From NCBI GenBank assembly GCA_041660305.1, contig JBAZWO010000001.1, positions 354,268 through 418,267 of the forward strand: a stretch of 64,000 nt of DNA, written 5' to 3'. The notes beneath the pieces were generated by a model. That model saw only the letters and a list, made by a program, of their open reading frames with translations, was not told the DNA's origin and made no database searches. Position 1 is the first letter of the stretch, and the number at the start of each line of letters is the position of its first letter. Of the stretch, positions 1,056 to 43,467 are shown piece after piece. Source of the DNA: Patescibacteria group bacterium. GTDB taxonomy: Bacteria > Patescibacteriota > Patescibacteriia > UBA9570. A program made the translations under genes and the position numbers.

Positions 1056-1140
1056 GACCCTTTCCCCCTACCCCCCTTCCCTGCAAGGCAGGGGGGAATT
1101 AATTATTCCCTCCCCTGCAGGGGAGGGCTAGGGAGGGGTC
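1056..1140. repeat. GC-rich hairpin repeat locus R1
   Basis: Contains the perfect palindrome ccctcccctgcaggggaggg (1108-1127) and the hairpin ccctgc-aag-gcaggg. It fills the only sizeable gap in the T4SS-like block and is C/G-rich in an AT-rich context. Confidence 0.8.
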
Positions 1141-8800: not shown

Positions 8801-11800
8801 TATTCGCCAACACATACCCGCTGTTGTCTGCGCCAATTTTCTTCATATTGGTAAGCGTTAACGGCCCGAATGAATAATTTTTTAAATCGGTAGTTAATTG
8901 AAATTTTTCAGACTGATAGGCAACATTAGATGCTACGTCTGACACAATATCTGTATCATTTACCCAGTCGGTACTGGTAGTTCCATTAACAGTAAAAGTA
9001 TAAGTTTCACCGCCAGTAGCCGAAGCAATTCCAGCATAATAACCTGAAGAAAAAATGTTATTTTCTGTATCATTGCTAGCAACATCACTGGTAATTACAT
9101 AAACCGGCATGGGTACACTGGCTGCTGCCGTAATAGCATTAACTTCATTATTATCATCTCCTGGTAATTGCCCATCGTTTTGATCGGTCACTAGAATCAA
9201 GAAACGTGAAGCACCGTTACGAAAATTAATATGTTCCACTGAATCATCTGCTTGATAAAATTCATTATTAGCTGTTTCAATAATTGCTTCCCACGGATCT
9301 AATACACCATAACCAATACAGAAAGGGTAATCAGTCCAAACCCCATTGTTTTCTATGCATTTATCTGGCGTACTACCAGAAGTACTACAACAATTCAAAT
9401 TTTTAAACAAGGCTGTAATATCTGTTATATTATCCGTGGAATCTAATACCACATCTTGAATAGCGTCTTTATAACCAAGATAGTTTCCATCAGAATCATA
9501 AGAAGGTTCTAATCCTATGGAAACAAAAGAAAATTTAGCCGATACACCAGCATTGTCTAATTCTTTTACCAAAGCTGGGATGGCTTTATTAACAGCCATA
9601 ATTTCTTCAGTCATAGAGCTAGATGTATCAATCGCAAAGACAATATCAGCGCTACCATAGCCATTTACAAAACAATCTCTTAAACTATTCACTGCATCGC
9701 CGCTAGGCGTAGCCACATTGCTATAGTTAAAACACACCGACATAGCCGAAGGATTAGCATTATTATCCGCTATCGGCACATAATTATCGCTGGTGTACCG
9801 CCCGGCAAACGACAGCGCGTAAGTAGCTGACGGGTTAATCGTTTCATTTAAATCGTACTGCGCACCGCCGGAAAAAGCTTTGTTGGCCGTACCACCAGTG
9901 CTGGTGGTATAGCTGGTTAACGCCGGTGTAAAGGCTAATACGTTATTAGCATCAATCTCATCGCAATCATTTAAACAATCTAAAGATTTATCATATTGTT
10001 TTACTTTTACCAACGATTTGCCAATTCCGCTCCAGCCAGTTTTAGTAGTAGTGGTTTTACCGGCACGAAACGGCCAAGCTTCAAACGCGGCATTGTTCGG
10101 ACAATAATATGTAGCGTCAATATCGGCTGGATCCGCAGTATTATCTTCCGTGTATGACACTGGATCATTGCCTGGATCTTGATCTGTATATAAAACTCCT
10201 ATAGAATTTTCATAACACTGGCTGGTGGCATAATCTTCCTCATTAGTGGCGTTATGCAAACAAGCTCGTTTTGGATTAGCATCATCTCCCACGCAATACA
10301 AATCTTCAAACGTGCTGAATTCGATTAAATCTTTACTATTAGTGCCGTTATTAGCCACTTCGTACATCCAACCATAGGGATAATAACCCATTACACTAAA
10401 CGGCTCGTTACATTTAGCGGCCGGGTTGTTACTACCAGGATTCAAACAATTAATGTCTTCATTACAATACTTTCCGGGTAAATCTGAAGCGGTGTTGCAA
10501 CTGCGTTCTTGCGTCCAAATTAAACCGGCCTTGGTATAACCAGTTAAATTTTGCGCCGCCTGCAAACCATCGGTTTGCCCGGGATCGGACACAAAACCAA
10601 TATCCGCCGCGCTGTTTAGCTCTGTACTACTTGGTTTATCGGACCATTTTATACAATTGCCGTTGTCATCCATTTTGGTACAACCGCGAATATTCAAACA
10701 TTCGTTTTGCGTAGTGTCGTTGCTATCGGTATACACATAACCGGTTTCGCAAGCCAGCCATTCACTGCAAACCCGCTGATTTTTTACTTTTAATATGGTA
10801 TTAGTATCACAAGCATCCAACACTGTTCTACAGGTATCGCTCGTGGGCGTTAACATGCAAGTAGCACAGGCTAGCCCATCTTGCGCTTGAGTTTGCGTTT
10901 CCGTGGTAGCATCGCGAAACGCCACACAGCCAGCGCCGGCCGACACTTCGGTGCAAGTATTTACGCCGTTATTTTGTGCATGTTCCGCTGTGCCATCTAC
11001 CGTGTAATCTAAATAATAATAATGATCGTTTTGTTTTAAGCTAACATCGTCCACATACATTGGCGCCGTGCTATGATTAATCACAAACACTTTTATAGTT
11101 GTTATGGCTTTCCAAGTACCCTTATTGGTCGCGCAGTCATCGGCGTTAAAACTATTCGCTTTATCACAGCCATCGGTTGGCAACGTAACTGTGGAACCTA
11201 AACCAATATTGCCTTCCAAGCGATACCATTCTTCAGTTTGTTTAGTATTGCTTTCTTTAGGAATGGTAACGTGATCAGCCGTAACATAGGTTTGCGCAGT
11301 GCTTACATACAGTGGAACATCGGCGGCCCAATACATTAAACCAATGCTGAACTTGGCTGGATTATCTGTATCTAAACTAACATCATCAAATGAAGCCGCT
11401 GGCAGGCGCACTAACGCCTGCAGAGTATAAGAATTTTCTGCGCTTAATTTGGTAAGATCGCCATTATTAACAATGCCCGCGTTCATTAAATACAGCGCCG
11501 CCGCTCCAGTGCCGGCGTTAATGGCCTCGCCTGTATAATCGGCCGCCGTAGTCATTAGTACTTCGTAATCTTTAGCGGTGCAATTGCTATCACATTGTCC
11601 ATCGCCGTTTATATCTAATATCGCCGGTGAAATCCAGTTATCCGGGTAGCCGTTTGGCACATCTTCATCGCTGTACCAATCTCCCGTGCTATCATGCGTA
11701 TCATATTCAAAGCTGTAATTGCTTACCAGTTCCGCCTGATTCGGGCTATATGGATCCACATATTCCGTACAGCCGGATTGTTCATTCGGGCATTCGCCCG

Positions 11801-14800
11801 CCCAGCCAAAATCAGACCGTATATCTTTTAAAGTTATGCTATCTTTTAGATATTCATCTACATCTTCCGATATAGACGAAATACAGCGCGGTTTGGGCAA
11901 GCCGCTGTTCCAATCCGTTGGGTAACAATCCGCGTCTGTATTACACAGCGCGCCAATTTTATTAACCGTACTAGTAATGCTATTGCTATTACATACTCCG
12001 TTTAAAGGCTGTGAAGCATAAGCTTCCGTATTAATATTATATTGCACCGGACAATCTGGATAATCCGGATAATCTTCATCGGTTCTATTTTTAAACCAGC
12101 CTAGTATATCCGCTCCTTCATAATTTTTATAATCGCGTAAAGTACATGTTTTATCGCCTGGGTTTTTGAAATAGGCCGTACCATCATAATCGGAAGTATA
12201 TTGTTCACAAGCTAATTGAGCCTCTTCACACAAGCTGGTAGCATATTCATCCGGCCTATCGTATAAATAAACTGAACTGTAGCCATTTATTTCATTCGTT
12301 CGTTCATCAATATCCGGTAAGCCAAAAGCGGTACAACCATAAGCTGTTTGTGAACACTGCTGGTTAGTATCATAAACTAGTGTAACTGGTTTATCGGCTG
12401 ATACAATAGTATCGTCTTGCGTGTATTCATTATTTAACACGAAGCCTTCCGTGAACGGATTGCTAGAATTACTAGTATCCAGCATGGCTTCACAGCCTAC
12501 CGCTGTATCATTACATAACCGTTTGAATGATTTTAGATAATAAGTATTATTAGCTCGATCATTATATTCACGGCAACCTTCAAATTTTTGGCACAATCTG
12601 GCGCTGTCTTGCACCAAATACTGGCTATTTGATGAAGCTAAAGTAATAGTGTCTATATAAGCTTCCGCACCACCATATTGAATTACAAAAGCTTCATCTC
12701 CATCAATACTGGCGCTACTATCTAAAATTATCGGCCCTAATTGATAATATTGCCAACCGCCGGCTTGTTGCGGATCTAATTGCACATTGGCTTGCGCTGA
12801 ATCTGTAGTAACGCCATTGGTAGTAAAATAATAAGTGTTATCTAAACCGATTAAAGAAAATGTAGCTGTGCCGGGCTGGGTAACTTTGGCCCAAAACTTC
12901 AATACATAGGCTTTACCAGCTTCTAAAGCCGGCTCTTTAATAACATAAGTAATTGTATTGTTGGTGGCTCCATGCATTTGTAATGAATAGTCGCCCTGAA
13001 TAACTGAATCGTTCGCCGTAGCCACGGCGCCAGACCAACCTTCAAAAGAATTATCAGCAAAATCTTCTGTAATAATATCTTCCGTAGCACTGGCATTAGA
13101 GCCCTGATATTCTCGGCAACCAACCGCGGCCGTACCGCAAGCAGAACTGCTAGCTTTGAGGGCATAATAAGTGCGTTCATCTAAGCTATTGCGTAATGGG
13201 GTACAATTATCCGAGGCTACTACTGTTTGTGATTCATAACGATAATAAACCGTGCCGGTATCATCATCATCAATAAATTGTCGGCAGTCCGGATTAACAC
13301 CATATTTCATGTTATCAGCCACGTTACCATTTGGGCCACAATCCTGAATGGTTAATGTAGCGTCGGCATTGTCTACACAATTAGCATTCGATTCCTGGCT
13401 TAGCAAATCTAAATGCGTGCATGGCCCTCCTCCAGCTACATTACTTTTCTTTAGTAAATAATCTTCCACTTGCACTCCGCCGCTATTACTGCCCACAAAC
13501 GTATAATAAGTGGCAATGTTATTGTCACTGGTTTTTACGCATTGTTGTAACCGATTATAATATTCCAAGCCTTCGCCGCCTTCGGCTACTGCCGCTAAAT
13601 TGGTATATTCTTCACAACCTACTTGTGCTACTGAACATTGCTTAGCTGAAGCCGGCACAATGGATAGCAAAGGCATACAACTACCTTTACCGGCACACTG
13701 GCTATCATCAAAACAATGGGTGCTGTTATCACCGCTACAATAATAGCCCGTACGCTGAATGGCGCCAGTTTTTGATTTTTCATCCAACGAATTAATATTA
13801 CTGGAGGAGGCTACTAATGGAGCGTTATTAGTAAGTGGTGCTTCTTGATAAAAATCACAGCCTACATTATAATCATCGGTTTGCCCAATGGTAGTATCAC
13901 CATTACATTGGCTGCAGGCGGGATTACCGTAATCGTAACCTAGTGTACCATCGGCATTTTTTAATACACAAGTGTCAATGGCTTGTGGATTAGTAATTAA
14001 ACCTGGAATCTGATTAGTTTTATTACCAGCTTCTGTATACATTTCACAGCCAACATCTTCAGCTGAACAACTAATTACTTGTTCATTTAAATAAGTGGCG
14101 TTATTACCATAATTGCTATAACTGTCTGAAAAACTATCTGTTTCAGCTAATTGAGCCGCCTCAATATCCAGCGCGCAACCGGGTTGGCCATTAATGGCTA
14201 CTTGCACTTTAGAGTCATTTACATTGCTAGCCGGGAAAGACACGGTTAATGAGTAGTCCGTCCAAACACTATTATATACTGCCGTGGTAGTGTTATATAC
14301 CTGGTTGGAAGACCCGATACTATAATTAGCTTCACAATCAACTGCATTAGTAACCCGGGCTCGATACGCGAATGTAAACGTTCTATCGCTTAAATCGTAG
14401 CCGGTATCCACCGTGTTAGTAAAAGCGCTGCCGTCGGCTTCGGTAATAAGCTGCACGTAATTGGCATTAATATCCGTTTCAGCGTTTTCAAACACTTGCG
14501 CCGTAAGATTATTTTGCTGCCAGCCCTGGCACACACTGCCAACCGAGCAATTACTGGCCGTGGTACAGCCTTGGCCAGTATCGGAACAAAAGCCTAAAAG
14601 TGTTCGCTCGTTTTCGCCACCACCGCTTTTATAATCAAAATAGGCGTTAGGTAGCAAATTAGTATCTGGCAAAACGCGCAAATACCGTCTGCAACCAGCA
14701 TCTTCACTAGCACAAGTTTTTATCGTGTTATTAAAATATAAAGTGTCATTCTCTACCGCTGGAGTTTCAGGTGTTGTACCAATAATACAGGTGCTTCCAT

Positions 14801-17264
14801 TCGAATTAGTGCAAGAATAAGCCCCAACCGCTATTGCACAATCACAATTCATACCAACCGTATCTTTTGCTTCACACGCGGTAGTGGCTGAATAAGTAGG
14901 ATAATCAGCACCACACACGCCGCCGGCTTGAGTGGTATCTAACTGACATGCTGTAGTAGTAGCTGTATTGTTGTATTGCAAATCAATCGGACATTCTGTA
15001 TCACCGTCCTCCACCGTACAACTTTGTTGCGCGGTACAAGTACACGTACCAACTCCATTAACTTCATTATATGAAGGGTTGTTTTTACCACAAGTATCAC
15101 TTAACGAACACACACTTAATGGTTGCCCCTCGGTGTCGTTAATTACACACTGCCAATAATCGTACACGCCGTCAGCGTTAGTATCGGTACCACGTTCTGA
15201 ACCGGCGGCTACTTGGCAAGTTTTCTGCCAGTTACAACTACAGCTGGCGCTTGGTGCCATGGAAAAATTATTAGCCGCCGCATTAGCTTCGTTACAAGCC
15301 AAATAAGTACTACCAGAACTAGCACAATCAAATTTACCGGCTTCATCGGTACTAGCACAATACCATTTACAACCAGGGTCGGTAGCACAATCACCATAAT
15401 TTAAACTATTTTTTAAATAAGATACTGTGTTGCCTTGCGTATCTGTAAATGTTTGACAAGAGGCGTGTTCTGTATCACAACTTTTTCCAGCAAATTGGTA
15501 GGATCGTTTTTCTTGTGTGCAATAGCCATAAGCCAAACAATTACCATCATCTCCCGCCGCAATACAGCCCCGATTATCCGCGCAATAATTCAACCGCCCA
15601 GCGGCCACTACTTGTTGCGTAGCTAAATTAGCGTCGTCATCAACTGGAATAATAGAAGCGTAATCCGGCCCAGGCGCTTCTCGCTCACAATAATTTTGCG
15701 GCGCCAGTAAAACCCAATCCGGATCGATTAATTTACAGTACGGCGAATACGTGGAACACTCCGTATTATTTGACATTAACAACTGACAATCACGCCCCTC
15801 TTCGGCGCCACCACAAGCATCGTAACAATTCATAATCTGTTGCAGGGTAGGAATAGCGGCCTGGTAACAAGTATTATTATTATTATTATTATTTTCTGTA
15901 CCATTAATTTTTAACCGGTACTGCGAATACTCCGCGGCCAATTGCCAACCTACCGGCACAATGCGGTATTTTTTTAATAAGATAACACCTTTTTCGGTAA
16001 ACCCAGCATCATTGCTAATGCTGTTGCCCTCTAGGGTATTATCAACAAAGCTTAGTGGCGCACCATTTAGTGAATCAACAAATTCTTTTACGGTTAACTG
16101 CTGCTGAATAGCCTGCTGCATTTTTATACCCATGGCACAATTATTTACAGTTGGCTTAACATCAGCTGTAATCGGACAAACGGCTAATTCAGCTGTAATA
16201 TCATACTCGCCGGTACTATAAAAAGTAGGGTTTTTTAAATCGGCGTACATTTCTTCAGCCGCCTGCCGGCCAGTGGAACTACCTACAGACATTAATGAGC
16301 TTAAATTATTGGCCACATCCGGCACCATGCCGGCTTTAATGCGCTCTACTAATTTAGTAATTAAAGTGGTAGCAAAAATATTAACCGCGTTTACAGCCGG
16401 TTCTTCCGTCATCTGATACAACATGCTGGTTTTAGCATCAGTAACGTTGTTTTTATAAATTTGCTCCACCACTGAACCAGGCGTAACGATGGTTTTGGAA
16501 ATTAAAGCTACCTGATCTTTAAAATCAGAATTAAGCCGTTTTAATTCAGCCTCTTTTTGCGCTTCTATTTTTTTACTTAACGTTAATTCAGACACTTCTA
16601 AAGCAATTCCTAAAGGATTAGCCGTCGGATCGAAATGAGCTTCAAAAAATTTGTTAAAATCAGGGTCAGCGTAGGCTTTTTTCCAATTCTTGCCTAATTC
16701 AGTTAAAGTACAAGCCGGTTTAAATTGATCTGGAGATTGCGCCTGACCGAAATTAGTTTCTAAACCCAATGTTAAACTAATTCTAAAATCAGCTCCCGGA
16801 TCACATAAACCAGCCGCATTTAACCCAGTGGCTGTGGCAAAGCCTTGAATAGCACTGCCAAGTGTGGCATCACCTATCTTTAATATATACTCACCACCAG
16901 ACTCTTGAAACACACCTGCTTCCTGCCCATTAAAACCATAAGCCATCCAAGTAGCTGTGTCGTAGGCCAACCGGCTTAAAAATGTGTTTAAAGCGGTACG
17001 AACGGTAACATTAGCAACTCGTTTTCCCGTAGTACTAAGGAATTCTCCAATACTACTTAGTGCTCTACTAATTGACGCACCAAAATCCGCTACTGGCAGT
17101 CCACCACCACCAACCTCTCCAAATCCACCAGGATTAGTAATCATATTAGGATTAGAAAGAGCAGCATCCGCTCCTGCTGCTAATGTTAGTTTAGGAACAC
17201 CTAATAGAAAAACAAGGCTACATATTGTTATAACTTTATAAATATGCAACCACCGTTGTTTCAT
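5883..17264 (-). CDS. giant secreted cysteine-rich surface protein (3,793 aa) with vWA and PKD-like domains
   Basis: Uninterrupted 11.4-kb ORF with an N-terminal signal-like segment (ITICSLVFLLGVPKLTLAAGADA). It has very high Cys/Asn/Thr/Gly content, a recurring GC(R/E)EY motif, a vWA MIDAS motif DTSSS and a C-terminal PKD-like fold motif. Confidence 0.9.
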   Translation of the reverse strand: MKQRWLHIYKVITICSLVFLLGVPKLTLAAGADAALSNPNMITNPGGFGEVGGGGLPVADFGASISRALSSIGEFLSTTGKRVANVTVRTALNTFLSRLAYDTATWMAYGFNGQEAGVFQESGGEYILKIGDATLGSAIQGFATATGLNAAGLCDPGADFRISLTLGLETNFGQAQSPDQFKPACTLTELGKNWKKAYADPDFNKFFEAHFDPTANPLGIALEVSELTLSKKIEAQKEAELKRLNSDFKDQVALISKTIVTPGSVVEQIYKNNVTDAKTSMLYQMTEEPAVNAVNIFATTLITKLVERIKAGMVPDVANNLSSLMSVGSSTGRQAAEEMYADLKNPTFYSTGEYDITAELAVCPITADVKPTVNNCAMGIKMQQAIQQQLTVKEFVDSLNGAPLSFVDNTLEGNSISNDAGFTEKGVILLKKYRIVPVGWQLAAEYSQYRLKINGTENNNNNNNTCYQAAIPTLQQIMNCYDACGGAEEGRDCQLLMSNNTECSTYSPYCKLIDPDWVLLAPQNYCEREAPGPDYASIIPVDDDANLATQQVVAAGRLNYCADNRGCIAAGDDGNCLAYGYCTQEKRSYQFAGKSCDTEHASCQTFTDTQGNTVSYLKNSLNYGDCATDPGCKWYCASTDEAGKFDCASSGSTYLACNEANAAANNFSMAPSASCSCNWQKTCQVAAGSERGTDTNADGVYDYWQCVINDTEGQPLSVCSLSDTCGKNNPSYNEVNGVGTCTCTAQQSCTVEDGDTECPIDLQYNNTATTTACQLDTTQAGGVCGADYPTYSATTACEAKDTVGMNCDCAIAVGAYSCTNSNGSTCIIGTTPETPAVENDTLYFNNTIKTCASEDAGCRRYLRVLPDTNLLPNAYFDYKSGGGENERTLLGFCSDTGQGCTTASNCSVGSVCQGWQQNNLTAQVFENAETDINANYVQLITEADGSAFTNTVDTGYDLSDRTFTFAYRARVTNAVDCEANYSIGSSNQVYNTTTAVYNSVWTDYSLTVSFPASNVNDSKVQVAINGQPGCALDIEAAQLAETDSFSDSYSNYGNNATYLNEQVISCSAEDVGCEMYTEAGNKTNQIPGLITNPQAIDTCVLKNADGTLGYDYGNPACSQCNGDTTIGQTDDYNVGCDFYQEAPLTNNAPLVASSSNINSLDEKSKTGAIQRTGYYCSGDNSTHCFDDSQCAGKGSCMPLLSIVPASAKQCSVAQVGCEEYTNLAAVAEGGEGLEYYNRLQQCVKTSDNNIATYYTFVGSNSGGVQVEDYLLKKSNVAGGGPCTHLDLLSQESNANCVDNADATLTIQDCGPNGNVADNMKYGVNPDCRQFIDDDDTGTVYYRYESQTVVASDNCTPLRNSLDERTYYALKASSSACGTAAVGCREYQGSNASATEDIITEDFADNSFEGWSGAVATANDSVIQGDYSLQMHGATNNTITYVIKEPALEAGKAYVLKFWAKVTQPGTATFSLIGLDNTYYFTTNGVTTDSAQANVQLDPQQAGGWQYYQLGPIILDSSASIDGDEAFVIQYGGAEAYIDTITLASSNSQYLVQDSARLCQKFEGCREYNDRANNTYYLKSFKRLCNDTAVGCEAMLDTSNSSNPFTEGFVLNNEYTQDDTIVSADKPVTLVYDTNQQCSQTAYGCTAFGLPDIDERTNEINGYSSVYLYDRPDEYATSLCEEAQLACEQYTSDYDGTAYFKNPGDKTCTLRDYKNYEGADILGWFKNRTDEDYPDYPDCPVQYNINTEAYASQPLNGVCNSNSITSTVNKIGALCNTDADCYPTDWNSGLPKPRCISSISEDVDEYLKDSITLKDIRSDFGWAGECPNEQSGCTEYVDPYSPNQAELVSNYSFEYDTHDSTGDWYSDEDVPNGYPDNWISPAILDINGDGQCDSNCTAKDYEVLMTTAADYTGEAINAGTGAAALYLMNAGIVNNGDLTKLSAENSYTLQALVRLPAASFDDVSLDTDNPAKFSIGLMYWAADVPLYVSTAQTYVTADHVTIPKESNTKQTEEWYRLEGNIGLGSTVTLPTDGCDKANSFNADDCATNKGTWKAITTIKVFVINHSTAPMYVDDVSLKQNDHYYYLDYTVDGTAEHAQNNGVNTCTEVSAGAGCVAFRDATTETQTQAQDGLACATCMLTPTSDTCRTVLDACDTNTILKVKNQRVCSEWLACETGYVYTDSNDTTQNECLNIRGCTKMDDNGNCIKWSDKPSSTELNSAADIGFVSDPGQTDGLQAAQNLTGYTKAGLIWTQERSCNTASDLPGKYCNEDINCLNPGSNNPAAKCNEPFSVMGYYPYGWMYEVANNGTNSKDLIEFSTFEDLYCVGDDANPKRACLHNATNEEDYATSQCYENSIGVLYTDQDPGNDPVSYTEDNTADPADIDATYYCPNNAAFEAWPFRAGKTTTTKTGWSGIGKSLVKVKQYDKSLDCLNDCDEIDANNVLAFTPALTSYTTSTGGTANKAFSGGAQYDLNETINPSATYALSFAGRYTSDNYVPIADNNANPSAMSVCFNYSNVATPSGDAVNSLRDCFVNGYGSADIVFAIDTSSSMTEEIMAVNKAIPALVKELDNAGVSAKFSFVSIGLEPSYDSDGNYLGYKDAIQDVVLDSTDNITDITALFKNLNCCSTSGSTPDKCIENNGVWTDYPFCIGYGVLDPWEAIIETANNEFYQADDSVEHINFRNGASRFLILVTDQNDGQLPGDDNNEVNAITAAASVPMPVYVITSDVASNDTENNIFSSGYYAGIASATGGETYTFTVNGTTSTDWVNDTDIVSDVASNVAYQSEKFQLTTDLKNYSFGPLTLTNMKKIGADNSGYVLANKEIGIITSLQFLGSDGTEIAVDNVSLLPVLEVNRDLSPIARSCRAYPDSDAKQCSYQAANGNQYRGWQGYCLELDPSNTQRCLTWWPLDVIAGEASLMKEPTSVITRSNVYHCLVAKGYEKPGFCVSNDAKNGASSAVGTGVACSDTADCNMALLGTPDPLSGAHTCFIGEHLSVNDYNNNDINGGGWYKFDSLAAGTSDSEKQKFSGAYHSRVAEWDMPNEADNLYQGNIAAIIANPLLKNIHVSEIETIEFNPGSAGDGTGAQNEFPYWGQLDGGKNSTEGYNRHALEVYDREENDQDTITGNIWLTDLYNGAIKYDADGKVDPLNQYCYAYDAAGSSSPYGIGCGVWGAFDNNKGITTNYDYYKQQYNPNNKTSTPNGYDLVYTWAYSNFNTNVAGCKKSAGSDANASAELYWEILRAEGSAGSWLTSSCVDNAVKCIMGVGDCAEDNNPWKHMGTVFDSGELYGGIKGGSIDQNRNIWDDFSYIELDTTWPGWTQMKDDLENKDVGNVFSLYIDFNDNGYVEKIYPFFYYAAEKTSDGVAGITLTYDAPMYINFYLRESCALLANTVGNDGTHHAWSNRLSGTDPYNIFAGSDGTMADTLKTSYKPFGSVAPLEGTPDTWDTFETVEKNTTTNTTTSNVYQYNTYGNQPPISYNIATGTENSKIATAGQPISCIGTCSQQWCVGNPMRYNTPCIIDDECKSEKNGKTFVGKCMGVTNSATSNIIGNKGMYANNNHLINSYQQAVAASANVAVGYLRRVFADVIGDFYRLDPVAEDQYSETGNIYLNAGDNYWVDLENGNNVFDAMSVCDTDDGSRPVENEYCGVKPVVDNIKLELNTTADGKYYQFPTGTNVKFSFDVQADVNQEPIPFVYVDYGDKTDSVTFPWEGRSATFPFTHVYECKANTLGSHCEYIIKVVAVDNWNWCSGTDNSKKSSGVNRYDSSIDGDVFEQCGSETIMPVTVWVDKKIN
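6020..6290 (-). other. PKD-like domain at the C-terminus of the giant protein
   Basis: FSFDVQADVNQEPIPFVYVDYGDKTDS...FTHVYEC...YIIKVVAVDNWNW resembles the PKD consensus (WDFGDG...HTY...Y.V.L.V.D). Confidence 0.5.
9085..9650 (-). other. von Willebrand factor A (vWA) domain inside the giant protein
   Basis: The sequence DIVFAIDTSSSMTEEI (MIDAS DxSxS, codons at 9615-9629) ... FLILVTDQNDG ... PVYVITSD follows a typical vWA beta-alpha-beta pattern. Confidence 0.7.
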
Positions 17265-18896: not shown

Positions 18897-18975
18897 CCCT
18901 CTAAGCTACCTCTCCCTGTCCTCCGGACATCCCTCCCCTATTAGGGGAGGGAAAGAGGGGGGGGTAAATTTCCCC
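18897..18975. repeat. GC-rich hairpin repeat locus R2
   Basis: Contains gctacctctccc followed by the hairpin ccctcccc-tatta-ggggaggg (18931-18951). It forms the C-terminal tail of the tsaC ORF. Confidence 0.8.
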
Positions 18976-19464
18976 TTGTCTATGCACAATTATTTTATTA
19001 CGTTTACATTCCACCACCGTAGACGGCTGGCATTTTTTTAATTTACCCATATTTATATAAAAAATATTTTTTATATATTTTTTATTTTTTAAATTATATA
19101 TTTCCGGCTCACCGGATTTATTAAAACTGGTAGCAATTAATGGCGCGCCGGCACGTTTGGCTAATTGTTTTGCAATAGTATTATTCGGTACACGTACCGC
19201 ATATTTTTTAGACACCACAATCGATAACGGTCCTGGCCAGTATTTTTTGGCTAATTTTTTCTGACAACTATTTAACTTAAAAAAACGCTCCGCTTGATAT
19301 AACGATGCGGCAATCAGAGTAAATTTAGGGTCTTTACGCCCCTTTATAGCCATGATTTTTTTAATGGCAGTCTTATTTCTAAAATCACAGCCAATGGCAT
19401 AAGCCGTGTCCGTTGGGTATACTACAATACCGCCTACCTCTCCCTCTTTCCCTCTCTTAAACAT
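18901..19464 (-). CDS. tsaC: L-threonylcarbamoyladenylate synthase (YrdC/Sua5 domain)
   Basis: The core GGIVVYPTDTAYAIGC...IKGRK...WPGPLSIVV is YrdC-like. The ORF-track start at 19578 and the last roughly 20 codons are read-through of repeat loci R3/R2, so I chose ATG 19464. Both termini remain uncertain. Confidence 0.75.
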   Translation of the reverse strand: MFKRGKEGEVGGIVVYPTDTAYAIGCDFRNKTAIKKIMAIKGRKDPKFTLIAASLYQAERFFKLNSCQKKLAKKYWPGPLSIVVSKKYAVRVPNNTIAKQLAKRAGAPLIATSFNKSGEPEIYNLKNKKYIKNIFYINMGKLKKCQPSTVVECKRNKIIVHRQGEIYPPLFPSPNRGGMSGGQGEVA

Positions 19465-19570
19465 CCTACCTCTATCCCCGACCCTTTCCCCTAAACAGGG
19501 GAAAGGGAGTAATGCAATTAGATTCTTCCCCCTCTCCTTAGAGGAGAGGGGGCTAGGGGGTGAGGTAGGC
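19432..19570. repeat. composite MITE-like repeat locus R3 (two hairpins, inverted ends)
   Basis: The left end gcctacctc and the right end gaggtaggc are inverted. Inside are hairpins ccctttcccct-aaaca-ggggaaaggg (19483-19508) and cccctctcc-ttag-aggagagggg. Positions 19461-19509 are identical to 23517-23565. Confidence 0.85.
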
Positions 19571-19574
19571 TGTT

Positions 19575-22004
19575 TCATTTAATTACTATACTTACCAATT
19601 TCTTTGGCACCACAATAACTTTCACTATTTCTTTTCCAGAAATATATTGTTGCACTTTATTACTCGCTAACGCCTTATCTTTAATTATCTGTTCATTATC
19701 CACTTCACTCGCTGATAATTCAATTTTATCACGTACTTTTCCGTTCACTTGTATAACCATTAAATAGCTTACATTCACTAATTTGGTTTCGTCATATTTT
19801 GGCCAATCTTGAAACAAATTTTCAGACCAATGTTTTTGTTCTCGTAACTCTTCAGCCAAATGTGGTGCGAACGGGTAAATTAACTGTAAATATATTTTAA
19901 GTTGCGCTTCTTGTAATTTCGGTTGTTCTGCATAGCTATTTAGACAAATCATTAATTGCGAAATAGCTGTGTTAAATTTAAATTGTTCAATATCTTCAGT
20001 AACTTTTTTTATTGTTTGATGTAAAGCCAGATCAACAGTATTACTTGCATTATCTGTTTTTACCGATTGATAAACATTCCAAATCTTTTCTAAAAACCGT
20101 CTCATCCCTTTTATGCTCTGCGGATCCCACGGTTTTGTTTCTTCAAACGGGCCCATGAACATTTCGTATAAGCGCATGGTATCGGCGCCAAAATCTTGCA
20201 CAATGGCATCGGGATTCACCACATTGCCTCTAGATTTGCTCATTTTCTGATGATCTTCGCCTAAAATCATGCCCTGATTACGCAGTGCTTTGAACGGCTC
20301 TCTGCCCACTGCTTTTGGAATAAACCCAAAATCTTGTAAGGCTTTATGAAAAAATCGGGCATACAGTAAATGCAGTACTGCGTGCTCGGCACCGCCTACA
20401 TACATATCTACCGGCAACCACTGTTTTAATTTTTCCGGATCAGCAAATTGTTTAGCATTATGCGGATCGCAGTAACGTAAATAATACCAAGATGAACAGA
20501 CAAACGTATCCATGGTATCAACTTCAAAATGCCAGCCGGCTCCATATAATTTCTCAGCCAAATCTTTATATGATTTAGAACTGCCTAACGGCGAGGTGCC
20601 TTTTGGCCTGTAATCAACATCTGTGGGTAACAATAACGGCAAATGCTCTTCTTTAATCGGATGAGCATTACCCTGTGGATCATAAACAATAGGTATAGGA
20701 GCACCCCAGTAGCGCTGGCGAGAAATTAACCAGTCACGAATTTTATAATTAGTTACTCTTTTACCCCAACCTTGTTTTTCTAAATAATCCATGATTTTTT
20801 CAGTAGCTACGTGAATATCTAATCCATTTAAAAAATCACTATTTATCATAGTACCTTGCTCTTCTTGTACCTGTTCCCGCTTACTAATAGTAGCTGTATC
20901 TCCATCCTTACCAACTACAACTCTGATCACTTCGATGCCCATAGCTTGAGCGAATTCAAAATCACGTACGTCATGACCTGGTACACCAACCACAGCTCCT
21001 GTGCCAACAGAGGCTAATACAAAATCAGAAATATATACAGGCAATCTTTTATTATTCAGTTTATTAATAACATAACTACCAGTAAACACACCCGTTTTCT
21101 TTTTGCCTTCTGAGATGCGCTCTAACTCAGTTTTTTTTACTGTTTGTTCAATATAGCTTGCCGTGGCTGTATAATTAGGAAATAATTTTAAGTTAGTTTG
21201 AACAAATTTACTATCTGGTGCTAAAACCACAAAAGTTGCGCCAAAGTTAGTGTCCGGTCTAGTAGTAAACACTGTGATATGTTGATCAGAATTTTCTAAA
21301 TCATAATCAATATTAATACCAACACTTTTTCCTATCCAATTTCTCTGCATTAATTTAATCGGCTCTGGCCAATCTATGCTATCTAAATCAGCTAATAATT
21401 TATCTGCGTAATCTGTGATTCTAAAAAACCATTGTTCAAGATCTTTCTGCATAACTGGATTTTTACAGCGCTCACACGCGCCATTCACTACTTGTTCATT
21501 CGCTAATACCGTTTGGCAACTAGCACACCAATTAACATGCGCTTTTTTTCTATACGCTAAACCGTGTTGATACATTTGCAAAAATATCCATTGCGTCCAA
21601 CAATAATATTCAGGCGAAGACGTATCTATTTCTCTAGACCAATCATAACTAAATCCCAATGCTTTAATTTGTCGTGTAAAATTTTTAATGTTGTTATGCG
21701 TAGAAGTATCAGGATCTACACCGGTTTTAATGGCGTAATTCTCGGCCGGCAAACCAAAGGCGTCCCAGCCCATGGGATGTAATACATTAAAACCACCCAT
21801 GCGTTTATAACGGGAAAAAATATCGGTAGCGGTGTAGCCTTCCGGGTGGCCAACATGCAAGCCATTAGCTGAAGGATAAGGAAACATGTCTAAACAATAA
21901 AATTTGGGTTTAGTAGAATTATCAGCGGCCTGATAATAATTGTTGTCTTGCCAATATTTTTGCCATTTTGGCTCAATAATATTTGGCTGATATTTATTAT
22001 CCAT
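19575..22004 (-). CDS. leuS: leucyl-tRNA synthetase
   Basis: 809 aa with the class I HIGH-type motif (PYPSANGLHVGH) and KMSKS (QKMSKSRGN). Collinear LeuS similarity is evident throughout. Confidence 0.95.
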   Translation of the reverse strand: MDNKYQPNIIEPKWQKYWQDNNYYQAADNSTKPKFYCLDMFPYPSANGLHVGHPEGYTATDIFSRYKRMGGFNVLHPMGWDAFGLPAENYAIKTGVDPDTSTHNNIKNFTRQIKALGFSYDWSREIDTSSPEYYCWTQWIFLQMYQHGLAYRKKAHVNWCASCQTVLANEQVVNGACERCKNPVMQKDLEQWFFRITDYADKLLADLDSIDWPEPIKLMQRNWIGKSVGINIDYDLENSDQHITVFTTRPDTNFGATFVVLAPDSKFVQTNLKLFPNYTATASYIEQTVKKTELERISEGKKKTGVFTGSYVINKLNNKRLPVYISDFVLASVGTGAVVGVPGHDVRDFEFAQAMGIEVIRVVVGKDGDTATISKREQVQEEQGTMINSDFLNGLDIHVATEKIMDYLEKQGWGKRVTNYKIRDWLISRQRYWGAPIPIVYDPQGNAHPIKEEHLPLLLPTDVDYRPKGTSPLGSSKSYKDLAEKLYGAGWHFEVDTMDTFVCSSWYYLRYCDPHNAKQFADPEKLKQWLPVDMYVGGAEHAVLHLLYARFFHKALQDFGFIPKAVGREPFKALRNQGMILGEDHQKMSKSRGNVVNPDAIVQDFGADTMRLYEMFMGPFEETKPWDPQSIKGMRRFLEKIWNVYQSVKTDNASNTVDLALHQTIKKVTEDIEQFKFNTAISQLMICLNSYAEQPKLQEAQLKIYLQLIYPFAPHLAEELREQKHWSENLFQDWPKYDETKLVNVSYLMVIQVNGKVRDKIELSASEVDNEQIIKDKALASNKVQQYISGKEIVKVIVVPKKLVSIVIK

Positions 22005-23498: not shown

Positions 23499-23566
23499 TA
23501 CCTACCTCACCTCCTAACATCCTACCTCTATCCCCGACCCTTTCCCCTAAACAGGGGAAAGGGAGA
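23499..23566. repeat. GC-rich hairpin repeat locus R4
   Basis: Contains cctacctcac.. followed by acatcctacctctatccccgaccctttcccctaaacaggggaaagggag, which is identical over 49 nt to part of R3. Confidence 0.9.
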
Positions 23567-24073: not shown

Positions 24074-24793
24074 ATGGGCATATTATATTGCGTCAGTACC
24101 CCAATTGGCAACCTAGCCGATATTACCATACGAGCTTTGGATATTTTAAAAACCGTAAATACTATTTTGTGCGAAGATACCCGCACTACCAAAACACTCT
24201 TAAAACACTATCAAATTAATACTCCTACTGAATCTTATCACCAAAATTCTACCGCTCAACAAGCCGCACAGATTATTACTAGATTACAATCTGGAGAAAA
24301 CCTAGCCTTAGTAAGTGATGCCGGCACCCCGGGTATTTCCGATCCTGGTAGCTTATTAATTCAGCAGGTACTAGCCGCTGGTATTACTGTTACCCCTATT
24401 CCAGGAGCCACGGCTTTAATTTGCGCTCTACAAGCCGCTGGTGTAGATATCAGTTCCTTTGTATATTTAGGTTTTCTCCCGCACAAAAAAGGCCGGCAAA
24501 CGTTATTTAACTATATTGCTCAAGAAACACGTACCGTAGTATTTTATGAATCCCCACACCGCATTTTAAAAACATTAACTGCTTTAAAAAACTGTAAGCG
24601 TAATATTGTATTAGCCCGTGAACTCACCAAAATTCACGAAGAATTCATCCGCGGCACCGCCGAACAAGTATACGTTGAACTTTTCAAGCGCCCAAAAATT
24701 TTAGGCGAGTTTGTGGTGATAATACATACCTCTCCCCTAGCCCCTCTCCTAATAGGAGAGGGGAATGATGAAATATATTTAGTACCTCGTTAA
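24074..24793 (+). CDS. rsmI: 16S rRNA (cytidine1402-2'-O)-methyltransferase
   Basis: The sequence LYCVSTPIGNLADITIRAL..L..V..ILCEDTR...SDAGTPGISDPG is the tetrapyrrole-methylase-fold RsmI pattern. The last roughly 20 codons run into repeat R5, so the true C-terminus is uncertain. Confidence 0.85.
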   Translation: MGILYCVSTPIGNLADITIRALDILKTVNTILCEDTRTTKTLLKHYQINTPTESYHQNSTAQQAAQIITRLQSGENLALVSDAGTPGISDPGSLLIQQVLAAGITVTPIPGATALICALQAAGVDISSFVYLGFLPHKKGRQTLFNYIAQETRTVVFYESPHRILKTLTALKNCKRNIVLARELTKIHEEFIRGTAEQVYVELFKRPKILGEFVVIIHTSPLAPLLIGEGNDEIYLVPR

Positions 24794-25124
24794 TATTGTT
24801 TATCACCTGATTATTACTAAATCTCAATACTGTATATCCTAATTGCAATAAATACAAATCTCTAGCTTGATCACGCTCTATCTGTTTTTCATGAATCAAG
24901 CCATCAACTTCAATAATAAGTTTTGCTTTTCTACAATAAAAATCTGCAATATATCGCCCAATAGGATGTTGCCTCTTAAATTTTGCGTTATTAATTTGCT
25001 TCCTACGTAATTGTTGCCATAAAATATATTCTGCTGTAGTTTGTTTTTCACGTAATTTTTTTGCAATGTAATGTAATTTAGTTTGAAATTGTATTGCTTG
25101 ATTATTTTTTGATGTTACTAGCAT
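24684..25124 (-). CDS. DUF559 (Vsr-like endonuclease fold) protein
   Basis: LWQQLRRKQINNAKFKRQHPIGRYIADFYCRKAKLIIEVDGLIHE...D..RD..L...GY.VLRF.N..V is a classic DUF559 signature. The tail HHSPLLLGEGLGERY... is read-through of repeat R5. Confidence 0.75.
   Translation of the reverse strand: MLVTSKNNQAIQFQTKLHYIAKKLREKQTTAEYILWQQLRRKQINNAKFKRQHPIGRYIADFYCRKAKLIIEVDGLIHEKQIERDQARDLYLLQLGYTVLRFSNNQVINNINEVLNIFHHSPLLLGEGLGERYVLSPQTRLKFLGA
24727..24764. repeat. GC-rich hairpin repeat locus R5 (left inverted end of the DUF559 unit)
   Basis: tacctctcccctagcccctctccta (24727-24751) lies next to the hairpin cccctctcct-aat-aggagagggg. Confidence 0.85.
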
Positions 25125-25140
25125 AAAATATTTTATAATT

Positions 25141-25216
25141 CTCCCTTTCCCCTATTTAGGGGAAAGGGTTGGGGATAGAGGTAGAATTTTTAGGAGAGGG
25201 GCTGGGGGAGAGGTAG
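25141..25216. repeat. GC-rich hairpin repeat locus R6 (right inverted end of the DUF559 unit)
   Basis: Hairpin ccctttcccct-attta-ggggaaaggg is followed by ttggggatagaggtag. Then taggagaggggctgggggagaggta (25191-25215) is the reverse complement of the R5 25-mer with one mismatch. Confidence 0.85.
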
Positions 25217-25221
25217 AATTT

Positions 25222-26742
25222 TTATTGCCCATTAAACACTTGCCGATACTGCAGTGCTTCGCGTAAATGGGCCGGGGTAATTTCCGCTTGGTGGGCTAAA
25301 TCGGCAATGGTTCTGGCTACTCGCAAAATACGGTGATAACTACGCGGAGATAATTGCAGGCGTTGCATGGCTTGTTTCATAATTTGTTTACCGGTAGCAT
25401 CTAATTGGCAATAGTGCTCAATTTGCTGAACATTCATGTAGGCATTACGAGAAATAACTACTTGCTGATAACGTTGTTGCTGTACTTGTACTGCTTGTTC
25501 TACCCGCTTACGAATACTAGCCGAAGATTCTTGAATTTGTGTAGTATTGGTTAACGTATCAAACGTTACCCTGGGCACATAACAACACAAATCCATTCTA
25601 TCTAATAACGGTCCGGATAATTTTTTTTGATATTTGGTGATTTGTTGCGGCGTGCAAGTGCACTCTTTTTCTTGATCGCCAACATAACCACATGGACATG
25701 GATTTAAACTGCCTACAAAAATACATTTGGCCGGATACGTAACCGTTTGTTCTGCCCGGGCTACTGTAATTACCCTATCTTCTAATGGTTGCCGCAGAGC
25801 CTCTAATACCATCCGGCTAAATTCTGGCAGCTCATCTAAATACAATACCCCGTGTTGCGCCAACGATATTTCACCAGGTCGTGGTAATCTACCACCACCC
25901 ACAATGGAAACCATCGATGAAGAATGGTGCGGCTGACGAAATGGCCGTGTGTTTAAAATAGCACTACGCGCCGTTAATAAGCCGGCAATGCTGTATAACC
26001 GCGTTACCTCTAATATTTCCGTGGCCGTCATGGGTGGCAAAATTGATAACAATGTTTTAGCTAAAATAGTTTTACCAGAACCTGGTGGCCCAAATAACAA
26101 AATATGATGCCCACCGGCCGCCACAATTTCCAAAGCTCGTTTAATCATGGTTTGTCCTTTAATATAGCTAAAATCTTGGTCAGTAACCGGCAGATGCGCT
26201 GTGGGTGGCAAATATGGTGCCGGTTTGATTAATTGCTGACCAGTGCAATGATTAATCATTTCGCTTAATGATTTAATTGGTAAAACTATTAATTTAGGTA
26301 CTAGCGTAGCTTCTTTATGATTAATTTGCGGCACAATAATTTGTTTAATATATTGCTCTTGCGCCATCATGGCCATGGCTAACACACCGCGCACCGGCTG
26401 TACATTACCATCTAAAGATAATTCGCCCACACATAAACCCATGTTTTCTGGCAAGATAATTTGTTGCGTAGCTGCTAAAATACCTAACGCAATTGGCAAA
26501 TCATAGCTTGGACCTTCTTTGGGTAAATCGGCCGGCGCTAAATTAACTACTACTTTTATATCGGGAAAAGTTTTGCCAACATGTTTAATGGCCGCTCTAA
26601 TTCGTTCCCGTGATTCTTGAATGGCCGCATCTGGCAAGCCAACAATGGTAAAACTAGGAAAACCAACCGAAACATCCACCTGTACTTCTACAATTTGCGA
26701 AGATAAGCCGCTAATAGCGGCTGAATATAATTTTACAATCAT
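25222..26742 (-). CDS. comM: Mg-chelatase-like ATPase, YifB/ComM family
   Basis: Has an N-terminal Lon-protease-like domain, a Walker A motif (LLFGPPGSGKT) and a C-terminal ChlI-like region. I chose ATG 26742 (MIVKLYSAAISG...) rather than the track's TTG 26790. Confidence 0.85.
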   Translation of the reverse strand: MIVKLYSAAISGLSSQIVEVQVDVSVGFPSFTIVGLPDAAIQESRERIRAAIKHVGKTFPDIKVVVNLAPADLPKEGPSYDLPIALGILAATQQIILPENMGLCVGELSLDGNVQPVRGVLAMAMMAQEQYIKQIIVPQINHKEATLVPKLIVLPIKSLSEMINHCTGQQLIKPAPYLPPTAHLPVTDQDFSYIKGQTMIKRALEIVAAGGHHILLFGPPGSGKTILAKTLLSILPPMTATEILEVTRLYSIAGLLTARSAILNTRPFRQPHHSSSMVSIVGGGRLPRPGEISLAQHGVLYLDELPEFSRMVLEALRQPLEDRVITVARAEQTVTYPAKCIFVGSLNPCPCGYVGDQEKECTCTPQQITKYQKKLSGPLLDRMDLCCYVPRVTFDTLTNTTQIQESSASIRKRVEQAVQVQQQRYQQVVISRNAYMNVQQIEHYCQLDATGKQIMKQAMQRLQLSPRSYHRILRVARTIADLAHQAEITPAHLREALQYRQVFNGQ

Positions 26743-26847
26743 AAAAAAATGATAAATAAAAACGCCACCCTGTGTTCGGGGAGCGCTCAATACCGGTACT
26801 ATATCACAAAATAACCTGTTTGTTAACCCAACTAGGGGTTAACATCA

Positions 26848-39768: not shown

Positions 39769-40083
39769 TCAAACTTTATGATTACTAATTATTGTTCGTT
39801 TTTTAACACGTTGAACTACTAATACAGTTACAAGATAAAGCGAGGCGTATATGCTGCCAATAAGATAAGGCAATACATCAAAAAACAGTGCCAGATTTTG
39901 ATTTATTAATTTTGAAAAAATGATATTTGCTAAGTGGCAGAAACTTTGCGTTAGCAGAAAACCAATAAACATAGAGATGGTTATAAAATAATTCCGCTCC
40001 GACAGTGTCACGAAATTAAAAACATAGACACACCAAGTAAGAACCAAAAAAATAACAATTGCAATAATATAATGTTTTTTCAT
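39769..40083 (-). CDS. small membrane protein (3 TM)
   Basis: 104 aa, hydrophobic, no recognisable motif. Confidence 0.45.
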   Translation of the reverse strand: MKKHYIIAIVIFLVLTWCVYVFNFVTLSERNYFITISMFIGFLLTQSFCHLANIIFSKLINQNLALFFDVLPYLIGSIYASLYLVTVLVVQRVKKRTIISNHKV

Positions 40084-40232
40084 AATACTTGAACCTATTT
40101 AATTAACCCAATCTACGCTTGAACTCTTTTATATTTTTTTCAAGCGCACATTTGGTTGGCCGATGAAGAAAAAAACTTTCTTTACAATTTTTTATCTCCA
40201 CGGCCGCACCTCCTTTCTAACAACTAACAAAA

Positions 40233-41927: not shown

Positions 41928-42011
41928 GCCACACCTCTCACAAACAGAAGGCTCATCATTCATTGCCACCAGAATATCCCGGCGGAACAACAAATCCGCG
42001 CGCACCCTTCC

Positions 42012-42523: not shown

Positions 42524-42566
42524 CTCCCCTTCTCCTAGTTAGGAGAAGGGGTTGGGGGTTGAGGTA
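42524..42566. repeat. GC-rich hairpin repeat locus R8
   Basis: ccccttctcc-tagtt-aggagaagggg followed by ttgggggttgaggta. Confidence 0.8.
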
Positions 42567-43423: not shown

Positions 43424-43467
43424 CTCCCTTTCCCCTTTTTAGGGGAAAGGGCCGGGGATAGAGGTAG
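43424..43467. repeat. GC-rich hairpin repeat locus R9
   Basis: ccctttcccct-ttttt-aggggaaaggg followed by ccggggatagaggtag. Confidence 0.85.

Follow-up and report, generated by a model that had tools for sequence, protein, structure and literature searches.

Within a stretch of 64,000 nucleotides (nt) from the genome of a Patescibacteria group bacterium (contig JBAZWO010000001.1; this whole stretch is called the window below), a small gene for a DUF559 nuclease lies in the junction between rsmI and comM, enclosed by copies, in inverted orientation, of a hairpin repeat that also occurs on its own elsewhere in the window. The initial annotation saw in this arrangement an analogue of the repetitive extragenic palindromic (REP) sequences and the REP-associated tyrosine transposases (RAYTs), which raises the question of whether the nuclease is indeed the partner of the repeat family and, if so, what the two do together. 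Our overall reading is that the locus is probably a compact homing-type endonuclease cassette, the ends of which are members of the solo-hairpin family. The initial interpretation is borne out in part. The partnership of nuclease and repeat is strongly supported statistically, and its mechanism is inferred. That positions 24727–25216 constitute a block-wise mobile cassette is likely, a homing-type mechanism driven by DUF559 is the route of movement that we lean towards, and mobilization of the solo units by the same protein is put forward tentatively.

The bracketing itself is as initially described. The 25-mer TACCTCTCCCCTAGCCCCTCTCCTA at 24727–24751 on the plus strand recurs as its reverse complement at 25191–25215 with one mismatch, and not a single chance match was found in 100 dinucleotide shuffles; a repeat search extended the inverted pair to 26 nt (24727–24752 and 25190–25215, 96 % complementary) with the arms 437 nt apart. 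Enclosed by these arms are the DUF559 open reading frame (ORF) and a complete hairpin unit of a second subtype (25141–25184) and nothing more, which bears out the earlier picture of a 489-bp unit holding only the gene and one extra hairpin copy. The distance of 16 nt between the ATG of the gene (25124–25122) and the right repeat block (25141) could likewise be reproduced. The statement that the conserved domain ends exactly where the left repeat begins holds to within 1–4 residues (the last helix extends to aa 119 and the tail starts at S121), but not to the letter. The inner right unit belongs to the subtype common to the solo copies at 19466, 23522, and 43425, and the outer right unit is a half unit that lacks the second hairpin arm and is followed on its inward side by the full unit (Table 1). 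For the left terminal unit (24727–24763), a DNA fold of −11.1 kcal/mol was calculated (z = −4.0), and the cassette as a single strand is predicted to close by a terminal stem of ~25 bp (z = −7.8). In addition to the 26 nt (96 %) of the window cassette, terminal inverted repeats (TIRs) of up to 37 nt (100 %) occur at the related locus L057. Rfam, promoter, and terminator scans of the window cassette gave nothing beyond chance, and since T-runs are absent after the hairpins, these are not intrinsic terminators.

Related genomes suggest how the cassette came to lie between rsmI and comM. In L083/L084 and L085/L086 (ComM 64 % identity), the gene order is kept and the convergent stop codons of comM and rsmI are 7–16 nt apart, without a cassette, so that the 489 bp represent an insertion at the rsmI stop codon; the empty sites in relatives that the initial annotation had suggested looking for are thus found at this very junction. 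No units were detected in these loci, which cover 13.5 + 8.8 kb. The left unit begins at the last base of the RsmI codon H218, corresponding to the stop-codon position of the relatives, the RsmI proteins of which comprise 218–220 aa. Because the unit replaced the stop codon, the ORF call of rsmI runs on into the cassette. With the left unit abutting H218 and the outer right unit 5 nt from the comM stop codon, the cassette fills the junction exactly. Judged from this comparison, it most likely entered as one block at the rsmI stop codon, within the tiny convergent spacer of rsmI and comM.

The same junction has a different occupant in the nearest relative (L082, ComM 70 % identity), where a small PDDEXK_3 (PF13366) nuclease gene is found instead (7527–7980). 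On both sides, this gene has a perfect 20-nt inverted repeat of its own, GAAACACTGATGCCACTGAT, and it is followed by a PALP gene; a third copy of the repeat lies at ~9180–9200. The L082 arrangement is a second cassette composed of a small PD-(D/E)XK nuclease and cognate inverted repeats at the same hot spot.

The link between DUF559 and the hairpin extends well beyond the window. In the available sequence of this genome (78 kb), a second DUF559 gene, P0002, shares 54 % identity with the window gene, is its sister in the DUF559 tree, and lies between a plus-strand unit upstream (L001, 6083–6122) and a minus-strand block of a full and a half unit downstream (6549–6631). A cross-phylum set of 80 loci with DUF559 relatives was compiled from species-representative genomes of at least six phyla, including Cyanobacteria, Chloroflexota, Bacteroidota, Planctomycetota, Proteobacteria, and Peribacteria. 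Up to 250 nt from the gene, units occur at a density of 3.36 per kb, compared with 0.113 per kb in the remaining 1.2 Mb, that is, they are enriched 30-fold. Relative to the catalytic motif, the hairpin centres cluster at −200 to −350 and at +150 to +250 nt, with outward-pointing tails; plus-oriented units dominate the outer upstream positions (−300 to −400), both orientations are mixed nearest to the gene, and minus-oriented units dominate downstream. The association test that the initial annotation had called for was thus positive with regard to enrichment, to distance, which is stereotyped, and to orientation. Loci that proved negative for the first unit family carry a CCCCTAAATCCCC-hairpin family restricted to particular DUF559 clades; this second family, (G)CCCC(C)TAAATCCCC(C)-loop-GGGGGA, replaces the CCTCACCCC family there (loci listed in Table 1). 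DUF559 is furthermore the sole recurrent cargo of head-to-head brackets (20 of 38), and for the 254 other unit-adjacent ORFs, the listing of the 25 commonest families per set contained neither a transposase nor a nuclease family. With both paralogues bracketed and the repeat family changing along with the DUF559 clade, the link between DUF559 lineage and hairpin is real, specific, and general.

The repeat unit measures 36–45 nt and consists of a C-rich tail (CTACCTC-N-CCCC-N-A-N in this genome), followed by a G+C-rich hairpin with a pyrimidine arm of 9–11 nt, a loop of 3–7 nt, and a purine arm; in a longer form, an additional half unit (tail plus one arm) is placed in front. The cross-phylum consensus reads CCCtCaCCCCyAr + CCCCTCTCC-loop-GGAGAGGGG, with conservation beginning sharply 13 nt before the stem and with ~76 % identity between units across phyla. 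An iterated nhmmer profile did not get beyond 40 of 82 sources owing to covariation in the unit stems, and a structure-based detector was used instead. Perfect hairpins of at least 8 bp followed 213 of 443 anchors that were defined by the tail only, compared with 3 after shuffling, and differing stems each have their own matching complement. It is thus the structure of the unit that is maintained, and not its sequence alone. The notion that the two ends of one cassette are more alike than unrelated units was rejected (0.79 vs. 0.76); the family is conserved everywhere.

The protein encoded in the window matches PF04480 (DUF559) over aa 17–116 with E = 2e-38 and 131 bits (cut-off 20.6). In its AlphaFold2 model (mean pLDDT 83.7), ~aa 6–119 are folded, and the repeat-derived tail is disordered; residues 121–146 result from translation running on through the left unit and the antisense end of rsmI. 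Foldseek matches comprised the DUF559 protein 3HRL (E = 1e-7, TMt 0.82), the catalytic domain of I-Bth0305I (3R3P; E = 6.6e-4, TM 0.74, 27 % identity), and, more distantly, Vsr (1VSR; E = 0.11). The window protein has E72, D74, H78, and D85, which are invariant across 26 relatives, and orthologous pairs have ratios of non-synonymous to synonymous substitution rates (dN/dS) of 0.10–0.16, in intergenic and in-frame contexts alike. Low dN/dS, invariant residues, and the fold match all point to DUF559 of the cassettes being an enzyme that is kept working. In a profile scan of the window protein, DUF559 and MTES_1575 were the sole matches and no Y1/HUH domain was detected; the enzyme has a PD-(D/E)XK fold of the Vsr/EDxHD type and is not a HUH tyrosine transposase, so that the analogy to RAYTs drawn by the initial annotation does not extend to the enzyme. 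No role is given for DUF559 in the searched literature; VsrA, a DUF559 protein, was shown to cause DNA damage in vivo in Caulobacter (PMC12907096). A promoter scan of the cassette found no promoter-like site of its own upstream of the DUF559 ORF.

In the annotations of the Joint Genome Institute (JGI), several DUF559 proteins are named ‘imidazole glycerol-phosphate synthase subunit HisF / cyclase’. At L074 (9857–11107), the N-terminus of HisF is joined in frame to a DUF559 domain, and this fusion is probably the seed of that naming.

In 31 of the 80 loci, the cassette, that is, the DUF559 domain together with two units, is located in frame within a long host ORF. Hosts confirmed by Pfam are leucyl-tRNA synthetase (LeuRS; at the boundary of catalytic core and editing domain), MetH (two sites), PriA, HsdR, HsdS, HsdM, an Eco57I/MmeI-like enzyme, and HisF (N-terminus), and no Hint/intein family was found in nine of the host–DUF559 fusion proteins. 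As the units are nearly stop-free, translation can pass through the cassette, and in relatives it thus resides in frame within essential proteins, apparently without splicing. In the MetH alignment, the inserts are clean loop insertions, each of the two sites being empty where the other one is occupied; in the DUF559 tree, two separate entries into site B, from a LeuRS-type lineage in one case and from a MetH-A-type lineage in the other, indicate jumps between host genes. A sample of 80 metagenomic LeuRS genes from Bacteroidota provided a second case: the loop NWIGxS..TTRPDT is empty in 49 of them (commonest length 25 aa), contains DUF559 in the LeuRS frame in 14, and contains units alone in none, with occupied and empty alleles interleaved in the LeuRS tree. 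Gene and repeats hence come and go together, and this is the sporadic distribution typical of homing elements. It is also the contrary of a gene fixed in place while its repeats vary independently, the pattern that the initial annotation had named as evidence against a partnership. One of the LeuRS inserts (L233) is in frame and has lost the E-x-D-x3-H motif (VEFSGKEDEA for IEVDGxxH); it appears to be a degenerating copy, as expected from a homing cycle.

Units also occur in reading frames in other forms. The LeuRS editing domains of L040 and L076 contain a solo unit in frame (PPSPLEKGLGDEA) ~120 aa past TTRPDT, at a position where other LeuRS have a short loop. In the downstream flank of the DUF559 gene of L003 (4700–4900), the purine arm of the unit is tandemly expanded and translated in frame as GEGSKKGEGSKEGEGSK...

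Within the window, units are found at nine loci, namely three head-to-head doublets, four solo copies, and the two flanks of the DUF559 gene (Table 1). Every one of them sits in a short intergenic spacer, and several lengthen the adjoining ORF calls. The composite of half and full unit recurs at 19434–19509 (76 nt, 88 %), at 23503–23564, and twice in L001. In the doublet at 19434–19568, the asymmetric architecture of the cassette is reproduced with an 18-nt spacer where the ORF would be, and a three-way junction is its predicted fold (z = −5.1); it is a candidate non-autonomous (ends-only) derivative or empty target, which would be the simplest account of the doublets. The hairpins are predicted to be stable as single strands throughout (z = −2.6 to −5.1), with doublets folding into three-way junctions with paired tails. 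The mechanically called ORFs of tsaC (18901–19578) and rsmI (24074–24793) are lengthened by unit read-through, with tails such as PSPLSSKERG and SPLAPLLIGEG, and tails of this type in annotated proteins are repeat artefacts.

Table 1. Features of the window (coordinates counted from its first nucleotide) and loci flanked by the second unit family.
Feature	Position	Strand	Remarks
Whole inserted cassette	24727–25216		From left to right: terminal unit, DUF559 ORF, full unit, half unit
Left terminal unit	24727–24763	+	14-nt C-rich tail 24727–24740, then hairpin CCCCTCTCC-TAATA-GGAGAGGGG 24741–24763
DUF559 (Vsr/EDxHD-like) endonuclease ORF, 146 aa	24684–25124	−	PF04480 match
Right inner full unit	25141–25184	−	Hairpin 25143–25168 (CCCTTTCCCC stem), tail 25169–25184
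Right outer half unit	25190–25216	−	Tail plus one arm; mate of the left unit (one mismatch)
rsmI, host gene at the insertion point	24074–24727	+	Conserved protein to H218; listed ORF runs to 24793
comM/yifB, host gene on the other side	25222–26790	−	Stop codon 5 nt from the cassette; DUF559 downstream on the same strand
ORF-less doublet (full unit, 18-nt spacer, full unit, half unit)	19434–19568	−	Aligns to both ends of the window and L001 cassettes
Head-to-head doublet of units	1065–1138		
Head-to-head doublet	42034–42127		Fold z = −4.3
Solo unit, downstream of tsaC	18907–18953	+	
Solo ‘half + full’ unit, between M23 peptidase and response-regulator genes	23503–23564	+	Missing at the same spot in L083
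Solo unit	42525–42566	−	
Solo unit	43425–43467	−	
Second-family loci (DUF559 flanks)	L017, L018, L026, L037, L042, L062, L075; L025, L039, L043, L044, L047, L065, L069, L074		

In the homing-type reading, the nuclease would be the cassette's own mobility enzyme. It would break an unoccupied site, and repair would then copy the cassette in, in the fashion of a homing endonuclease, with gene ends and surface loops serving as new sites. Solo hairpins and head-to-head doublets would most likely be ends-only derivatives, comparable to MITEs (miniature transposable elements with inverted repeats), or targets, spread via the same nuclease; this is the least certain step. In its behaviour, the element looks nearer to a homing-endonuclease cassette moving as a block together with its repeats than to a domesticated single-copy gene. 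The cassette type appears to be widespread and undescribed, and the searched literature contained no case in which a DUF559 gene is combined with conserved hairpin ends, with residence in frame, and with a family of dispersed solo copies. A more speculative extension, for which the odds are rather against us, would be a pan-bacterial selfish class of ~0.45-kb DUF559 cassettes that are capped by hairpin inverted repeats and enter gene ends and, in frame and without splicing, surface loops of essential proteins (LeuRS, MetH, PriA, restriction-modification subunits), with the widespread ‘PSP..GEG..GVR’-coding repeats of bacterial and phage genomes as ends-only derivatives and DUF559 as the enzyme partner of a major palindromic-repeat family that acts by a non-HUH mechanism.

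Several findings weigh against such a homing cassette. Neither a target-site duplication nor a target motif outside the tails was found in 21 cassettes, and an all-against-all blastn search returned no near-identical cassettes at differing sites, all similar pairs being orthologous. The identical protein P0106 is present on 16 contigs with neighbours that are always the same, and several cassettes stay at one locus across related species under purifying selection, which fits a domesticated gene too. At the comM–rsmI junction, the relatives with the empty site are distant (ComM 64 %), and units and gene may have arrived stepwise here. Strand transfer, moreover, is beyond a PD-(D/E)XK nuclease alone. 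The two paralogues differ in the direction of the ORF with respect to the asymmetric ends, which would not be seen in a rigid block, so that the terminal repeats must also recombine or the cassette must be able to enter in either orientation. Finally, DUF559 was found beside none of 89 pattern-selected units in 80 virus-classified contigs, and a later screen revealed one bracketed DUF559 in another virus-classified contig (L209); solo units thus far outnumber the cassettes.

Units as such are common in viral sequence data. At least 120 virus-classified IMG/VR contigs (L097–L216) contain the 21-nt unit pattern CCTCACCCCYARCCCCTCTCC; many of these contigs resemble Mu and encode Gp27, GemA, Gam, and the Mu portal protein beside the units, and the unit is often positioned immediately upstream of a start codon. 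In a phage genome collection, a relative is encoded in just 3 of 50,697 records, and cultured phages are hence no obvious vector.

With regard to known systems, the catalytic fold of the window protein is common to the Vsr-like (EDxHD) homing endonucleases, such as I-Bth0305I (Taylor et al. 2011, PMC3239194) and the ‘fractured gene’ endonucleases (Dassa et al. 2009, PMC2677866). These enzymes are likewise encoded by free-standing genes or within conserved genes and occur sporadically at fixed sites, and the latter study also described stand-alone inserts without intron or intein as well as hairpins upstream of ORFs. Presence/absence polymorphism at a precise site, as expected of a free-standing homing gene, is observed here both at the comM–rsmI junction and in the LeuRS loop. 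Unlike the known Vsr-like examples, which reside in group I introns or between split-intein halves or split the host gene in two, the DUF559 cassette has hairpin inverted-repeat ends, is translated in frame with its host in relatives, and has its ends dispersed as a repeat family. I-Bth0305I possesses a long N-terminal DNA-binding region, whereas the window ORF is short and devoid of such a region.

The DUF559 inserts also resemble the ‘ShiLan domain’, an in-frame, non-splicing insert in a phage methylase with a hidden HNH endonuclease (PMC11855218). Both are located in a conserved gene, leave the host frame stop-free, have no intein or intron features, and are presumed to be tolerated as a surface loop. 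However, the HNH endonuclease is read in another frame, whereas DUF559 is read in the frame of the host, has hairpin-repeat flanks, and spans many host genes and phyla. Inteins and introns proper differ by their splicing elements, given that no Hint domain was present in the nine fusions and no Rfam match in the window cassette. With insertion sequences and MITEs, the cassette shares the TIRs of 26–40 nt around one small enzyme gene and the ORF-less doublets with the same ends, but target-site duplications are lacking in the 21 cassettes, the enzyme is outside the known transposase classes, and the copies within the genome are old (54 % identity), with no near-identical ones in its 78 kb. The solo units in frame in LeuRS of L040 and L076 are, in turn, reminiscent of the Rickettsia palindromic elements (RPEs), which were reportedly described by Ogata et al. 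in 2000 and are also mentioned in PMC3733652. RPEs are not known to have an enzyme partner, whereas here the repeat comes in physical association with a specific nuclease gene.

Of the competing explanations, the one that fares best, although still unlikely, is a domesticated system in the manner of REPs and RAYTs, in which a low-copy, vertically inherited host nuclease maintains the solo hairpins in trans and the flanks are a signature rather than mobile ends. The established example of a nuclease gene with its genome-wide hairpins on either side is provided by REP/REPIN–RAYT systems (REPtrons; PMC3337134, PMC3116915, PMC3733652), and RAYT genes have REP or TIR flanks (PMC3733652). Common to both systems are a nuclease gene between inverted copies of a genome-wide hairpin repeat, inverted doublets, which are REPIN-like and fold stably, a low-copy gene under purifying selection, and repeats that are also found within genes. 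Orthologous DUF559 loci indeed persist across related species with dN/dS ~0.1, solo units greatly exceed the genes in number, and nuclease clade and repeat family change together, all of which would suit a domesticated gene. The enzyme class, however, differs, as RAYTs are HUH tyrosine transposases that cut single-stranded REPs at GTAG, whereas DUF559 is of the PD-(D/E)XK/Vsr type and the HUH/Y1 domain is absent. Tails in this genome end in GGTAG at 13–16 nt from the stem, a tag that is missing from the cross-phylum consensus; the GTAG (or CGTC) tag of REPs adjoins the palindrome. The unit carries a C-rich tail of 13 nt and is conserved between phyla (~76 % identity), whereas REPs are generally species-specific. 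In contrast to REPs and RAYTs, gene and repeats come and go together, with patchy presence and absence of the block at one codon-level LeuRS site, and in-frame residence in essential genes at 31 of 80 loci corresponds to the niche of a selfish element. The copy pattern combines two diverged copies in this genome, which also speak against domestication, with orthologous persistence in some lineages and patchiness in LeuRS.

It is less probable still that the units are moved by a different enzyme (e.g., a HUH transposase of the RAYT/TIRYT type) or by a host process, with DUF559 being a passenger between two units, or a homing gene that specifically invades unit doublets already in place. This would fit the abundance of units in virus-classified contigs without DUF559, the ORF-less doublet with identical architecture in the window, and the presence of the ORF in both orientations between the same asymmetric ends. 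Di Nocera et al. described RAYT-like ‘TIRYT’ genes flanked by TIRs that share the motif GGGGWSAS, to which the commonest tail, GGGGTGAG, conforms, but the window tails GGGGATAG and GGGGGAGA do not. No Y1 transposase, moreover, was among the 25 most frequent families listed per set for the 254 unit-adjacent ORFs, units alone were found in 0 of the 49 empty LeuRS alleles, and the unit family differs by DUF559 clade, which is unexpected for a generic passenger.

Very little probability remains for an invertible segment, in which the inverted repeats would serve inversion, whether site-independent or recombinase-driven, that switches DUF559 expression. The one trace in the searched literature is a table entry by Milman et al. 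2023 (PMC9881135), with a 14-fold enrichment of ‘DUF559 domain-containing protein’ among candidates for ‘programmed inversion’ that have inverted repeats on their flanks; in addition, the ORF is flipped relative to the asymmetric ends between the paralogues and, lacking a promoter-like site of its own, lies downstream of comM. The enrichment is, however, explained by terminal repeats alone, no invertase gene is located nearby, and inversion would be lethal at the 31 in-frame insertions. That the repeats simply favour short intergenic spacers and that the DUF559 gene merely happens to lie between two of them, a caveat raised by the initial annotation for which the intergenic location of all window units and the presence of units on both sides of tsaC and of two other ordinary window genes could be cited, is rejected as next to impossible by the 30-fold cross-phylum enrichment over 81 loci, by block-wise presence and absence at the comM–rsmI junction and in LeuRS, and by the head-to-head bracketing of both paralogues (estimated p ~6e-4 before orientation is considered, with an inferred ~12 of ~75 spacers occupied).

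Two further observations concern other parts of the window. The region 40001–42000 has a G+C content of 0.486, compared with ~0.38 elsewhere, and overlaps an ORF of 590 aa (40233–42005) that is followed by a unit doublet. On the minus strand, positions 5883–17264 are taken up by a single ORF of 3,793 aa.

DUF559 is a large family of unknown function, and the data presented here give it a concrete, testable role as the nuclease within a very small mobile cassette whose ends are defined. Such a role would explain several annotation oddities, including ORFs with PSP..GEG..GVR tails, ‘HisF/cyclase’ names, and flags for ‘programmed inversion’. In many Bacteroidota, a complete nuclease domain resides in frame in essential enzymes such as LeuRS and MetH, apparently without splicing. 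A candidate enzyme is proposed for a cross-phylum family of short hairpin repeats, and if this nuclease recognizes the structure of the hairpin or doublet, it would provide a new model for the spread of palindromic repeats and, if true, a small nuclease with structure or sequence specificity that may be of practical use.

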